64,000 nucleotides of DNA from a virus (IMGVR_UViG_3300032087_006376:1-64000); one strand, 5' to 3'; shown: positions 48,197 to 52,760, counted from the stretch's first letter. Numbers and translations are program-made. Notes: generated by a model from the sequence alone, not told the origin.

Positions 48197-48202
48197 GTGT
48201 AA
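48197..48202 (+). promoter_or_regulatory. GTGTA(A/T) phage promoter-like motif
   Basis: GTGTAA 9 nt before ATG 48212. Confidence 0.6.
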
Positions 48203-48211
48203 ATAATATTG

Positions 48212-48643
48212 ATGGTACCTCCAGAATTAATTTCTATGGCCTTTGGAAGCCTTTCTGGCTTCATATTTAAGTTTATGGCTCAAAGAGCTAAAGAGAAAGC
48301 TGAGATGCTTAAAATGGCTCTTAAAACACAACAAGCGAATGAGGACGCTCATAACGCTGCTGTTCAACGCGTATCAGTCGATGGCGGTAAGTGGGTTAGG
48401 CGACTGATAGTCGTTTCAACTTTATTCGGGGTAATTATTGCTCCATTTTTTCTCGCATTATTAAATGAACCATTATACGTACAAATAGCAGAAACAAAAA
48501 GATCATATTTGTTTGGCTTATTTGGTGGCGGAACTGATAATTATTTTGTAAGAGTTGATGGATATTTAATGATTCCAGAGGTCAGGCAAACTTTAACGGC
48601 TATAGTAGGCTTTTATTTCGGTAGTTCAGTAGTAAAATCATGA
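48212..48643 (+). CDS. Holin-like membrane protein (3TM/GTA-holin-like)
   Basis: Hydrophobic segments; C-terminal IVGFYFGSS motif typical of 3TM holins. Start moved to ATG 48212. Confidence 0.5.
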   Translation: MVPPELISMAFGSLSGFIFKFMAQRAKEKAEMLKMALKTQQANEDAHNAAVQRVSVDGGKWVRRLIVVSTLFGVIIAPFFLALLNEPLYVQIAETKRSYLFGLFGGGTDNYFVRVDGYLMIPEVRQTLTAIVGFYFGSSVVKS

Positions 48644-48900
48644 TCAAGTATATTTTTTTAACGTTAACGCTAATTTTTATTTGTTCTTGTTCTACAGTCA
48701 GAGGCTTTAAAAAAAATGATGAACGAGTATTAATTCCCAAAAGAGCTGAAGCTCAAAATAGGTTTATAAGATCTGCTGATGAAAAACCTAATCCAGAAAA
48801 GCAAGTCTTATCACCACAAGCATTCACAAAGTGGACTTTATTTTCTAGCGCAGGTAGTTTTATGATATTTCAATTCTTAAGGTGGAAACATATAGTATAA
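48640..48900 (+). CDS. Predicted lipoprotein with C-terminal hydrophobic helix (u-spanin-like architecture)
   Basis: MIKYIFLTLTLIFICS-C lipobox-like signal; C-terminal WTLFSSAGSFMIFQFL. Confidence 0.4.
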   Translation: MIKYIFLTLTLIFICSCSTVRGFKKNDERVLIPKRAEAQNRFIRSADEKPNPEKQVLSPQAFTKWTLFSSAGSFMIFQFLRWKHIV

Positions 48901-48901
48901 A

Positions 48902-50086
48902 ATGGATATATTAAGAATAACTGGAGCAAAAAGTCTTTGGCACTATTTTAAATTCACATTTTCAGCTTGTTACCGCAAACAACTGCAGGTTGAAAAAGCC
49001 AAACAACAGCAGACATTAAACGAATTAATATTAAAAGATAAACTTCTTGAAGAAACAAGTCTTATTAGTAAAGCTGATGCTAAAGGTAGAATTACTTATG
49101 CAAATGATAAGTTTTTAAAAGTTACTGGGTACACTTTAGAAGAATGTATTGGCCAAGACCACAATATTGTTAACTCAGGTCATCACCCAAAAGAAGTATG
49201 GGTAGACATGTACAAAACTGTTGTTAAAGAAAAAAAGATTTGGCATCATCCATGTGTTGTTAATAAATCTAAAGATGGCAAACTTTATTATGTTAAATCG
49301 TGGATTCAAGGTGAATTTGATTTATCAGGTAAATTAAAAGGTTTTATAAGTATTAGGCACGACATCACAAGTTTAATAAATCAACAAAAAGAAATTTCTG
49401 AAAAAAATACTTACTTAGAACATGCCGCCAAAATTCTTCGCCACGACATGCATAGCGGTATAAACACTTACATTCCAAGAGGTGTTTCTTCTTTAAAAAG
49501 AAGGTTAACTGACGAAGCTATCAAAGAGCTTAAATTAGAAGCGCCATTAAAACTAATACAAGAAGGACTAACTCACACTCAAAAAGTCTATAAAGGCGTT
49601 TATGAATTTAGTAATTTAGTTAGACAAGATAATGAACTAAACAAAGAAAAAGTAGATTTAAAGGCTATACTTTTAGATTATTTATCTAGCACGTCTTATG
49701 CTGATCAAGTTTTGATTAACGACCTACCCACAATGCCAGTGAATGAAGCTTTATTTTGTACTGCAATAGATAATTTAATTCGAAATGGCTTAAAATACAA
49801 CGATTCTGACACTAAGAAAGTAGAAATATTCTATAGTAAAAGTACTCACGATCTTTTCATAGAAGACAACGGTAGAGGTTTAACTCAGAAAGATTTAGAA
49901 TTCTTAATGAAACCTTATACCAGAAAAGCTGATCAAAAAGAATCCGGTTCTGGTTTAGGATTAAATATATGTATAGCTATCTTAGAACAACACAATTTTA
50001 AAGTTTCATGCGAAAAGCTTCCGGCACCTTATACAGGCACAAGATTTAAAATAGATCTAGGAAAAATTTCAGAATATAAAATTTAA
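48902..50086 (+). CDS. Soluble PAS-domain sensor histidine kinase
   Basis: PAS (ITYANDKF..VTGY..EECIGQDHNIVNSG.H); H-box ILRHDMH; N-box NLIRNGLKYN; EDNGRG; GSGLGL. Confidence 0.92.
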   Translation: MDILRITGAKSLWHYFKFTFSACYRKQLQVEKAKQQQTLNELILKDKLLEETSLISKADAKGRITYANDKFLKVTGYTLEECIGQDHNIVNSGHHPKEVWVDMYKTVVKEKKIWHHPCVVNKSKDGKLYYVKSWIQGEFDLSGKLKGFISIRHDITSLINQQKEISEKNTYLEHAAKILRHDMHSGINTYIPRGVSSLKRRLTDEAIKELKLEAPLKLIQEGLTHTQKVYKGVYEFSNLVRQDNELNKEKVDLKAILLDYLSSTSYADQVLINDLPTMPVNEALFCTAIDNLIRNGLKYNDSDTKKVEIFYSKSTHDLFIEDNGRGLTQKDLEFLMKPYTRKADQKESGSGLGLNICIAILEQHNFKVSCEKLPAPYTGTRFKIDLGKISEYKI

Positions 50087-50543: not shown

Positions 50544-51118
50544 TACGTTTTAGTGATGACTTAAAAAAAGAATTAATACAATTAGCCGCCGAAAAAGAAA
50601 TTTTTCTGGAGGGTAATATCACTAAAATTATCGATACAGACGGTCACGCAGAGTTTCACTCCTACATTCAGTCAGCAATAAATAGAGACAGAGAAAACAG
50701 AAAAAAACGTCTCGAAATTACAAAAACCATTCAAGAGCAAAATAAAGCTCTAATGGAATGGAAATCCCACAACGAAGAATTGAATAAAGAACTTCAATTA
50801 GCTTTAGCAGAGTCTGAAAAAGCTAAACAACTTGCAGAAAATGATTTAGACGTATTGCAAAAAAAAACGCAAAACGAATTAGTTGGTTCGATTGTGAAAG
50901 TTGCACTATGGATTATATGCGGGGTTGGGACAATAACTTCAATTCTTTTCGCTCTTACTTTATTCACGGGTTTAGAAAACAAAACCGTGGAATCTTCTTG
51001 GAGCAACATGTTCAGCATTCTCTTAACTAATAGCTTCAGCATAGTTGGCACTATTATGGGCGTTAAATATGCCGGTAACAAAGGCAGCGGTAAATGTCAA
51101 TATTGCAAAAAAAATTAA
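50540..51118 (+). CDS. Coiled-coil protein with two C-terminal transmembrane helices
   Basis: Heptad region RDRENRKK...LQKK, then two hydrophobic helices and CQYC. Confidence 0.65.
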   Translation: MIRFSDDLKKELIQLAAEKEIFLEGNITKIIDTDGHAEFHSYIQSAINRDRENRKKRLEITKTIQEQNKALMEWKSHNEELNKELQLALAESEKAKQLAENDLDVLQKKTQNELVGSIVKVALWIICGVGTITSILFALTLFTGLENKTVESSWSNMFSILLTNSFSIVGTIMGVKYAGNKGSGKCQYCKKN

Positions 51119-51144
51119 ATAAAACCGGCAAAATCGCTACCGGC

Positions 51145-51150
51145 GTGTAA
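51145..51150 (+). promoter_or_regulatory. GTGTA(A/T) phage promoter-like motif
   Basis: GTGTAA 8 nt before ATG 51159. Confidence 0.55.
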
Positions 51151-51158
51151 AGTTAGGC

Positions 51159-52760
51159 ATGGGGGAACTGCATACCATAGCCAGTAATGGTAATTTAAAT
51201 GTTATAAAGAAAGCGCTTTCTAAAGATAAAGACGCTTTTCTTGCTATTGATGAAGAAATGGGCTGGTCACCGCTTCACTACGCAGCAAATAAAAGCAAAA
51301 CTAAAATTGTAGAAGCTATTTTAGAAGCCGGAGTAGACCCAAATATTCCAAGTGTTCCTCCTCCAAAATACAAACAAAATTCTTGGAATTTAGCTATGGA
51401 GTTAGACGAAGGCAACGTCGATCCCGTTGTTTATCCTCTTGATGTTGCAGACGGACCTTCTCGAACCACTGTATTTAAAACTTTGCTGATGTATGGAGCA
51501 ACTTTTTTTGGTGATGAAATTACTTTGCATCAAGCTGTACAGTTAGATGATATGGATGAAGTTCAGGGGCTACTAGAAGATGAAAGCTTAAGGATTAACG
51601 CTAGAGATAACAGAGGCTGGATGGCAATTCATTATGCTGTAGACCTTGGAAATATGGAGATGCTTAAGGTTTTAATAGCTCATAAAGCTAATGTCAACGG
51701 CTCTACCTACGCAAAAGACGCTACAATGCATTTCAATGCTTGGGAGATAGCTAACCTTAAAAATGACGAGGTAATGCTTAAGTATTTAGAATCCAAAGGG
51801 GCTAAGCGTCACCCCGGCATACAGCAAAATCAAAGAGCTTCATTAAAAAGTCAAACTAAATTATATAACACTTCAAAATCTGACTTAAATATGTCAGCAG
51901 TTAGAGAAAAGCTCAGAGAAAGAGAAGCTTCTTTCAAAAAAGCCCCTAAAGCTCCCGAAGGGTTTCTTGGTAAACTGTTTGAAAATAAACATGATAAAGA
52001 AAAAAGATTAGCTTTAGAAGCTCTTGCTGAAAAAGAAAGATTAAAAGCGGAACAAGAAAAAAAAGAAAAACAAGAAGAACAAGAAAGAAAAAGAAAAGAA
52101 CAGCAAGTTATAAAGTGGGCCGGAGGCGTAGATCCTTTTAAATTAAAAGGTCAGTCAATAACTTATGATCAACAATGTGAGGCACACACTTATTTTATGG
52201 ATATAGTTGGCTATTCTAAAAAAAGTACAACAGAACAAAAACAAGTTTCAGACGAGTTAGTTCGCATTGTTAAAGGAACTGAAAGTTTTCAAAAAGCAGA
52301 TAAAAAAGGTAAATTAATTATTTTACCTACTGGAGACGGCATGGCTTTAGTTTTCTTTGATTCTATTCATACTGCATTTAAATGCGCTATAGATGTAGGC
52401 ATGAGGACTTACAAACACGCTCAGATAGGTTTACGTCACGGCGTTTATACTGGGCCTGTAGTACCCGTTAAAGATATCAATGATAATCCAAATGTGTCTG
52501 GTACAGGAATAAATATGGCTCAACGTTGTATGGACGCAGGAGATAATGATCATATTTTAATATCAGATCATGTTTGTCAGTATGTAAAAGAAACTTCTGT
52601 AGCGGGAATAAAATTTGAGGATTGGGGGCCGGTAGTCGTTAAGCATGGCGCTACAGTACATATGTGGACAGTGTTTGGTCCTAATTTTGGCAGACAAGAG
52701 TTTCCACACTGGAGAGGTGTTAAAAGATTAGAGTATAAAGAAGAGGAAGAAGATCAGTAA
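51159..52760 (+). CDS. Ankyrin-repeat / coiled-coil / class III nucleotidyl cyclase fusion
   Basis: GWSPLHYAA and GWMAIHYAV ankyrins; cyclase FMDIVGYS, TGDG, GINMAQR. Confidence 0.85.
   Translation: MGELHTIASNGNLNVIKKALSKDKDAFLAIDEEMGWSPLHYAANKSKTKIVEAILEAGVDPNIPSVPPPKYKQNSWNLAMELDEGNVDPVVYPLDVADGPSRTTVFKTLLMYGATFFGDEITLHQAVQLDDMDEVQGLLEDESLRINARDNRGWMAIHYAVDLGNMEMLKVLIAHKANVNGSTYAKDATMHFNAWEIANLKNDEVMLKYLESKGAKRHPGIQQNQRASLKSQTKLYNTSKSDLNMSAVREKLREREASFKKAPKAPEGFLGKLFENKHDKEKRLALEALAEKERLKAEQEKKEKQEEQERKRKEQQVIKWAGGVDPFKLKGQSITYDQQCEAHTYFMDIVGYSKKSTTEQKQVSDELVRIVKGTESFQKADKKGKLIILPTGDGMALVFFDSIHTAFKCAIDVGMRTYKHAQIGLRHGVYTGPVVPVKDINDNPNVSGTGINMAQRCMDAGDNDHILISDHVCQYVKETSVAGIKFEDWGPVVVKHGATVHMWTVFGPNFGRQEFPHWRGVKRLEYKEEEEDQ

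Follow-up and report, generated by a model that had tools for sequence, protein, structure and literature searches.

The timing of lysis sets burst size and fitness of a phage. To our knowledge, lysis inhibition of the T-even phages is the only signal-dependent control of lysis timing that is well understood. In phage T4 it involves the holin T together with the antiholins RI and RIII (PMC11413866, PMC8385771), and lysis inhibition is also described for phage ICP1 (PMC7182436). Here we analyzed a run of six genes, g1 to g6, found at positions 48,197 to 52,760 of DNA from an uncultured marine phage (IMGVR_UViG_3300032087_006376:1-64000). The run encodes a small membrane protein (g1), a lipoprotein (g2), a soluble histidine kinase (HK, g3) with a PAS domain, a receiver-only response regulator (RR, g4), a protein with a coiled coil and a hairpin of two transmembrane (TM) helices (g5), and an ankyrin-cyclase (g6). 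The window, which is the whole analyzed stretch of 64,000 nucleotides, represents the first 64 kb of a linear 127.7-kb IMG/VR virus record with an estimated completeness of 88%. A preliminary description of this DNA had treated the six genes as one signaling module attached to a lysis-like cassette. Comparison with about 300 viral loci showed the run to be a mosaic in which three units, inherited independently, lie side by side, namely the pair g1-g2, a phage-restricted, mobile signaling cassette composed of HK, RR and g5 (hereafter the trio), and the cyclase gene. For a functional reading of this mosaic, in which g1-g2 would be a lysis-type pair, the trio a mobile relay adjusting lysis timing via the g5 hairpin, and the cyclase unrelated to both, we consider the chances to be about even.

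In staphylococci, the two-component system LytSR is tied to the holin-like proteins CidAB/LrgAB and to the energy state of the membrane; it is bacterial, exerts transcriptional control via a LytTR DNA-binding regulator, and shows no homology to g5. In the CheA-CheY-FliM pathway, to which the g3-g4 pair can be likened, a single-domain receiver acts through protein binding. A further parallel is the pair HK853-RR468 (PDB 3DGE), which like g3-g4 consists of a kinase with a class I core and a receiver standing alone, with the full set of phospho-chemistry residues. In contrast to both of these pathways, the trio is phage-encoded and phage-restricted, and its receiver is presumed to act on a dedicated membrane protein to which it is translationally coupled. 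T4 lysis inhibition resembles the arrangement proposed here, since phage-encoded sensing during infection shifts the time of lysis via membrane proteins of the lysis cassette. It differs by the lack of a phosphorelay, by the periplasmic nature of its signal (superinfection) and by the absence of any similarity to g5 in sequence or fold, whereas in the trio a cytoplasmic kinase with its receiver, or a fused PAS or GAF domain, would drive a two-TM hairpin. In the literature searched, no published description of a phage kinase-receiver-membrane protein trio was found; a review on jumbo phages covers a different receiver without a link to a kinase.

All six open reading frames (ORFs) were confirmed by ORF calling. 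They are located on the + strand and are tightly spaced with minimal gaps. Within the run, HK spans 48902..50086, RR 50112..50543 and g5 50540..51118, with the start codon of g5 overlapping the stop codon of RR (ATGA). To analyze co-conservation, 151 loci were compared by tblastn and clustering of ORFs. HK, RR and g5 were present in 60/60, 60/60 and 59/60 loci, respectively, and their order was identical in 59 distinct viral loci; the next commonest neighbor of the trio was found in no more than 14. An overlap of RR and g5 by 4 or 1 nt was observed in 44 of the 59 loci. The remaining genes of the run followed their own distribution. About 57 loci carried the trio without the cyclase gene. The latter was kept at 53-95% identity in about 40 loci, approximately 38 of them without HK, RR or g5 within 8 kb. 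Its usual neighbors encode PhoH, a sigma-like factor, ERCC4 and a small MscS-like protein, and these neighbor genes are found in the present record at 109.9-113.6 kb, 58 kb away from g6. Similarly, g1 was present without the trio in 24 loci, and the trio was located beside g1 only in the sister contig (L005/L009), the single other contig in which all six genes occur together. A contig with flanking genes of 92-96% identity (L129, 3300025652_009361) showed the order dUTPase-ThyX-g1-g2...g8-HNH and lacked g3 to g6. The separate conservation of g1-g2, the trio and g6, combined with the gap in L129, identifies the run as a mosaic with g3 to g7 in a variable slot. The single six-gene module of the preliminary description was not supported: a lack of co-conservation, named there as refuting, was observed for both the cyclase and the holin-like gene.

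The kinase g3 is predicted to be soluble. Searching Pfam, HATPase_c (53 bits, cut-off 26.4) and PAS were detected; the HisKA model gave no match in g3 and matched in the related kinase fusions described below. The phospho-acceptor histidine H181 of the H-box (RHDMHSG), the N-box (N291/N295) and the motifs G1 (DNGRG) and G2 (GxGLGL) were invariant in 38 homologues. The best solved relatives of the PAS domain were the FAD-binding PAS domains of MmoS (3EWK, 2.3e-24), Aer (8DIK, 1.6e-17) and NifL (2GJ3, 5.7e-9), with approximately 109 residues aligned, and the N-terminal model of NifL was matched at 1.4e-20. These domains are alike in sequence; that of g3 differs in being part of a soluble phage kinase. 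The earlier assignment to the Aer/NifL flavin type agrees with these matches, and the PAS domain of g3 probably binds flavin. Across the trio loci the length of the kinase ranged from 263 to 717 aa, and its sensor was PAS (27/38), GAF (10/38) or none, with about a quarter of the trio kinases lacking a sensor of their own. The kinase of the sister contig (L005) was found with exactly the PAS domain deleted. Redox sensing as a fixed trait of the system, as previously assumed, was not sustained in view of this kinase and of the lineages with GAF or no sensor.

The receiver protein g4 comprises 143 aa, with a REC domain (Response_reg, 42 bits, cut-off 30.2), a conserved C-terminal tail of about 30 residues and no other domain. 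It is predicted to be soluble and was present, with identities of 66-85%, in 56 viral loci. Residues D9, D10, D61, S92-94 and K114 were invariant in a 38-sequence alignment, which together with the kinase alignment confirmed that the phosphorelay residues are intact. As already noted in the preliminary description, RR carries no DNA-binding output domain, and its output must therefore be a protein-protein contact. The g5 protein starts with a small N-terminal domain (invariant LEGN..K), followed by a basic helix, a coiled coil, TM1, a tight turn and TM2. The coiled coil varies in length and continues directly into TM1, and according to the alignment TM2 is near-invariant and polar. An AF2 model of g5 reached a pLDDT of 82. 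Using a g5 profile, 259 representative clusters were obtained. The family is virus-only; among bacterial genomes just 8 contigs from metagenome-assembled genomes (MAGs) over 8 phyla carried it, and these contigs are probably mis-binned phage DNA. A host inference from the MAG copies was dropped due to this spread over 8 phyla.

Two types of natural fusions were found for g5. In the sensor-hairpin fusions (P0154, P0178, P0179) a GAF or PAS(-PAS) unit is located N-terminal to a g5-type coil and hairpin. The PAS-hairpin fusion occurred in 253 viral loci, and among 25 listed of the 27 families of its four nearest genes no kinase or receiver domain was present. In the N-domain-kinase fusions (P0237, P0250, P0255, P0265) the N-terminal domain and coil of g5 are placed on a HisKA-HATPase core, which replaces the hairpin. 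Such kinase fusions were seen repeatedly, on contigs as long as 100 kb, and were for this reason regarded as real genes; a full-length copy of them was not found in the viral and metagenome scans. Taken together, both fusion types place the N-terminal domain at the input position and the hairpin at the output position. A further fusion of the g5 N-terminal domain with FecCD (P0171) was rejected as a likely artefact, being a singleton on a 1.5-kb contig. The PAS-PAS-hairpin protein P0179 is publicly named "methyl-accepting chemotaxis protein", which looks like a mis-annotation originating from PAS plus coiled coil.

Analyzing the gene neighborhood of the trio, 15 of the 164 nearest-flank genes were of endolysin type compared to 2 of 148 more distant ones (p=0.0018). 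A 31-member endolysin-type cluster contributed 14 of these genes, and one lysozyme was found in addition. Subtype 1 of this cluster is GH19, which was confirmed against the endolysins of PWe1 and SPN1S, and subtype 2 occurs fused to a peptidoglycan-binding domain. For the PAS-hairpin fusion, 20 of 126 nearest genes were endolysin-type (p=6e-6; four nearest genes, 126 proteins from about 33 loci), and its neighbors included GH19 (10 cases), Phage_lysozyme (3), Peptidase_M15_3 (2), PG_binding_1 (7) and holin_4_1 (3). Genes for holin_4_1 and for small multi-TM proteins were repeatedly found near the trio as well as near the fusion. In the present window the trio adjoins g1-g2. On account of the sensor fusions and of the endolysin adjacency of both forms, we regard the g5 hairpin as a probable effector of lysis or of the membrane under sensor control.

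Two uncharacterized protein types were observed in the same surroundings. A domain of about 200 aa with the motifs GINIHKAG and WSEGCQVF (L059:5206-5799, L206:4310-5116 and relatives) recurs in lysis cassettes. Searched alone it had no match in Pfam or PDB, it is sometimes fused to a peptidoglycan-binding domain, and it may represent an unassigned catalytic family of endolysins. Moreover, a two-TM protein of 62-66 aa ending in ...FCPSKW..EK.G is encoded directly upstream of the kinase in several loci (L078:445-630, L080:6929-7114, L106:584-781, L113:3807-3992), and in L106 it follows a holin_4_1-type gene.

The pair g1-g2 precedes the trio. The g1 protein (48209..48643, +, 144 aa) has one strong TM segment (residues 66-84) and matches phrog_38283, a PHROG of unknown function. 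A total of 26 viral homologues was found, with an ORF of the unimolecular spanin (u-spanin) type following them in nearly every case. In an Atlas neighbor cluster of g1, PF11351 was present in 14% of the members, which is a lead only; g1 is holin-like by position only. The g2 protein (48640..48900, +, 86 aa) overlaps g1 by 4 nt and carries an N-terminal lipoprotein signal with the lipobox ...LIFICSC. An N-terminal lipoprotein signal plus a C-terminal anchor is the defining architecture of u-spanins (PMC6139136). In 12 of 13 loci inspected, the ORF following g1 combined a lipobox signal with a C-terminal membrane anchor, the sequences themselves being unrelated. The C-terminal segment of g2 is weakly hydrophobic and stays below the hydropathy threshold, whereas its counterparts elsewhere possess clear C-terminal TM helices. 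Because the ORF after g1 keeps the u-spanin architecture, g1-g2 was classified as a putative lysis-type pair with g2 as its predicted u-spanin; its position was conserved in 12 of 13 lineages. Like gp11 of phage T1 (PMC6139136), g2 and its counterparts show a lipoprotein signal, no periplasmic Cys and a closing position in a small pair of lysis type, and they possess a C-terminal anchor, which in g2 is a candidate segment only. They differ from gp11 in that g2 shares no sequence similarity with it, has a short periplasmic part (about 48 residues), a C-terminus of weak hydrophobicity and no adjacent endolysin gene. A spanin would in turn imply a diderm host. Ten proteins neighboring g1 homologues included no endolysin, and tblastn of the record with endolysin, holin and small-TM neighbors from other loci yielded no match.

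These observations can be combined in a mechanism as follows. The flavin-type PAS domain would sense a condition and set the activity of the kinase, which would autophosphorylate on H181 and hand the phosphate to D61 of RR. Phosphorylated RR would bind to g5 at its small N-terminal domain, from which the coiled coil would relay the signal to the near-invariant two-helix membrane hairpin. The hairpin may then alter membrane or holin behavior, by which the timing of lysis would be adjusted. A broader version is put forward more tentatively, as we rate it somewhat below an even chance: throughout this phage-restricted family, swappable sensors acting by relay or by fusion would drive a hairpin that gates or delays holin lysis according to the redox or energy state, in hundreds of lineages of large aquatic phages. 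Such a control of lysis timing would be of a kind not described for any characterized phage.

We are aware that several points weigh against lysis timing as the role of the trio. All biochemical steps of the mechanism are inferred from sequence. A Foldseek comparison of the g5 model with the PDB gave generic helical hairpins only. A recognizable endolysin was found within roughly 2 kb in just about 30% of the trio loci, and the loci share descent, which inflates the statistics of endolysin adjacency given above. In three loci (L002-L004) the trio lies beside structural genes of LamG type and not beside lysis genes. Regarding the present record, g1, called holin-like in the preliminary description, matched no Pfam holin family (PF11351 absent at E<=1), and PF00959, PF00182, PF01510, PF08291 and PF01464 were absent (seven endolysin families or subtypes tried). 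The lysis link suggested earlier is plausible from the predicted u-spanin architecture of g2 and from the enrichment of the g5 family beside endolysins, but no endolysin was found in the record itself. Since the sister phage lacks PAS, the cassette can do without redox sensing. PHROG annotation gave no temporal class for the GTGTAA signal described below, and the N-domain-kinase fusions may be read as g5 providing input to the kinase, i.e., as a signal running in reverse.

This reversed wiring, in which g5 is a membrane sensor or scaffold reporting proton motive force, envelope stress or superinfection to the kinase, and the receiver acts on an unlinked target (e.g., a host protein) or as a phosphate sink, was weighed against the hairpin as an output. 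It would explain why the g5 N-terminal domain and coil are found on HisKA-HATPase cores in the manner of a kinase input, and it is in agreement with the fraction of about a quarter of the kinases without own sensor and with a polar, near-invariant TM2 suited for a specific membrane contact. However, the cytoplasmic PAS or GAF domains N-terminal to coil and hairpin, with neither kinase nor receiver among the listed families of the four nearest genes, make the hairpin an output, and the translational coupling connects RR to g5 and not g5 to HK. We therefore regard the reversed wiring as unlikely. The trio could also serve a purpose other than lysis, such as superinfection exclusion, host takeover or counter-defence, and its proximity to lysis genes might result from shared late expression or from accessory hot spots. 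Approximately 70% of the trio loci without a recognizable endolysin nearby, the highly variable contexts of the trio, the structural genes beside it in L003, and the variable slot with its adjoining HNH endonuclease gene in the present record would all be compatible with such a role. The enrichment of endolysins nevertheless survived within-locus controls and was much stronger for the sensor-hairpin fusions, and both forms repeatedly have holins and small multi-TM proteins as neighbors, so a role apart from lysis appears rather improbable to us.

Two further explanations found far less support. According to the original proposal, one circuit of six genes exists, in which kinase and receiver control the holin-like g1 and the ankyrin-cyclase and thereby set lysis timing or the level of a second messenger. 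The common strand, the adjacency with tiny gaps, the GTGTAA motif common to the genes and the full arrangement kept in L005/L009 had made a cyclase wired to the relay an attractive picture, which was corrected by synteny: the cyclase in its own conserved neighborhood (PhoH, sigma-like factor, ERCC4) without the trio, the trio without the cyclase, g1 without the trio, and L129 with g1-g2...g8 and no g3 to g6 largely refute it. A second-messenger output received no comparative support either, and we consider a single circuit very improbable. Hardly credible is finally the view that bacterial two-component genes were recently captured and are without function in the phage. The domains are indeed of bacterial type, but RR identities of 66-85% and catalytic residues without variation in 59 distinct viral loci speak against it, as does the lack of g5 in bacterial genomes apart from the 8 MAG contigs.

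If the timing of lysis is indeed adjusted by the trio via the g5 hairpin, phages would monitor the physiology of the infected cell through two-component systems of their own. The trio would then offer three small, testable genes and a new family of membrane effectors.

The third unit of the mosaic, g6 (51159..52760, +), is predicted to be soluble and consists of ankyrin repeats (Ank hits), a charged coiled-coil linker and a C-terminal cyclase domain. Using the single sequence, Guanylate_cyc was reached with 19.4 bits, which is below the Pfam cut-off of 21.9. A profile of 20 sequences compared with the PDB retrieved cyclase catalytic domains only (1YBT with 1e-5, 3MR7, 5OYH, 6AOA, 4WP9). The motifs FMDIVGYS, PTGDGMALVF and GINMAQR were invariant in the 20 homologues and align to Rv1900c, which preserves the Asn/Arg pair as well as the two Asp motifs for metal binding. 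Like the cyclase homology domain of Rv1900c/LipJ (1YBT), Ma1120, CyaC and rhodopsin-guanylate cyclase, the C-terminus of g6 shows the metal Asp motifs, Asn-x3-Arg and the Lys-Gly strand. It differs from these class III cyclases in its N-terminal ankyrin repeats, in being phage-encoded and in the positions of base recognition, where neither the canonical Lys/Asp (adenine) nor the Glu/Cys (guanine) pair was found; Leu and Asn, both invariant, stand where adenylate cyclases have Lys and Asp. An AF2 model of the domain was set aside as unusable (pLDDT 47). g6 is an independent accessory gene and probably encodes an active class III cyclase. With more than 6000 homologous metagenomic proteins, many of them marine, and a catalytic domain conserved to about 82%, the ankyrin-cyclases of marine phages form an abundant uncharacterized family.

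Downstream of g6 follow two genes on the opposite strand. Searches of Pfam, PHROGs and NCBIfam gave no family for the product of g7 (52754..53653, -, 299 aa), a gene that converges on g6 with an overlap of 7 nt, and none of the fetched loci contained a homologue; the sister contig carries an ORF of 94 aa at this place. The g8 gene (53719..54426, -, 235 aa) encodes a secreted protein with a signal peptide, a weak TorF-porin hint and the C-terminus ...RWNF, which looks like a phage-encoded outer-membrane barrel. It forms a unit of its own between a divergent GTGTAA motif (54439-54444, -) and a terminator (53664-53690). g8 accompanies the trio in the nearest clade only (L002-4, L046, L051-53) and is also present in L129 without the trio. 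Compared to the present window, L129 lacks the entire g3-g7 island (window 48900-53700), the slot being bounded by g2 and g8. An HNH endonuclease gene (54510-55106), conserved to 98%, adjoins this slot and might be tied to its variability. The GC content is approximately 32%. Searching cultured phages with the DNA of the record gave no match, protein searches against them gave distant PAS and ankyrin matches only, and the T4-type capsid PF07068 was not matched in a search with an uninformative control. As relatives, the record has uncultured viral contigs, of which many are marine.

The run is preceded by an intrinsic terminator (48149..48179, +; 14-bp stem including 7 GC pairs, with a T-run behind it), which ends the upstream ThyX/dUTPase unit, and by a GTGTAA motif (48197..48202, +), both as reported before. 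A hairpin between g5 and g6 was no better as a terminator than shuffled sequences. Counted over the whole window, GTGTAA was not enriched (37 copies, 29 expected). In the 40 nt upstream of start codons of the whole genome it was the most enriched hexamer, preceding 16 of 178 genes compared to 1.4 expected, mostly 13-19 nt ahead of the ATG. Apart from g1 and the divergent g8, copies precede RR (50088..50093, +, 24 nt ahead of the start) and g6 (51145..51150, +, 14 nt ahead). Of the phage-specific promoter class claimed in the preliminary description, a phage-specific upstream motif stands, which may be a promoter or another element; the other genes preceded by GTGTAA, considered for a temporal class, were nearly all of unknown function in the PHROG annotation. 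The motif often reads AGTGTAA, with examples at window positions 6020, 28571, 38906, 41311, 48197, 50088 and 51145. If it represents a -10-like element, its geometry would result in nearly leaderless transcripts. In the nearest clade AGTGTAT is found ahead of the kinase gene, and other lineages carry TATTTAT or TATAAATA at the equivalent place.

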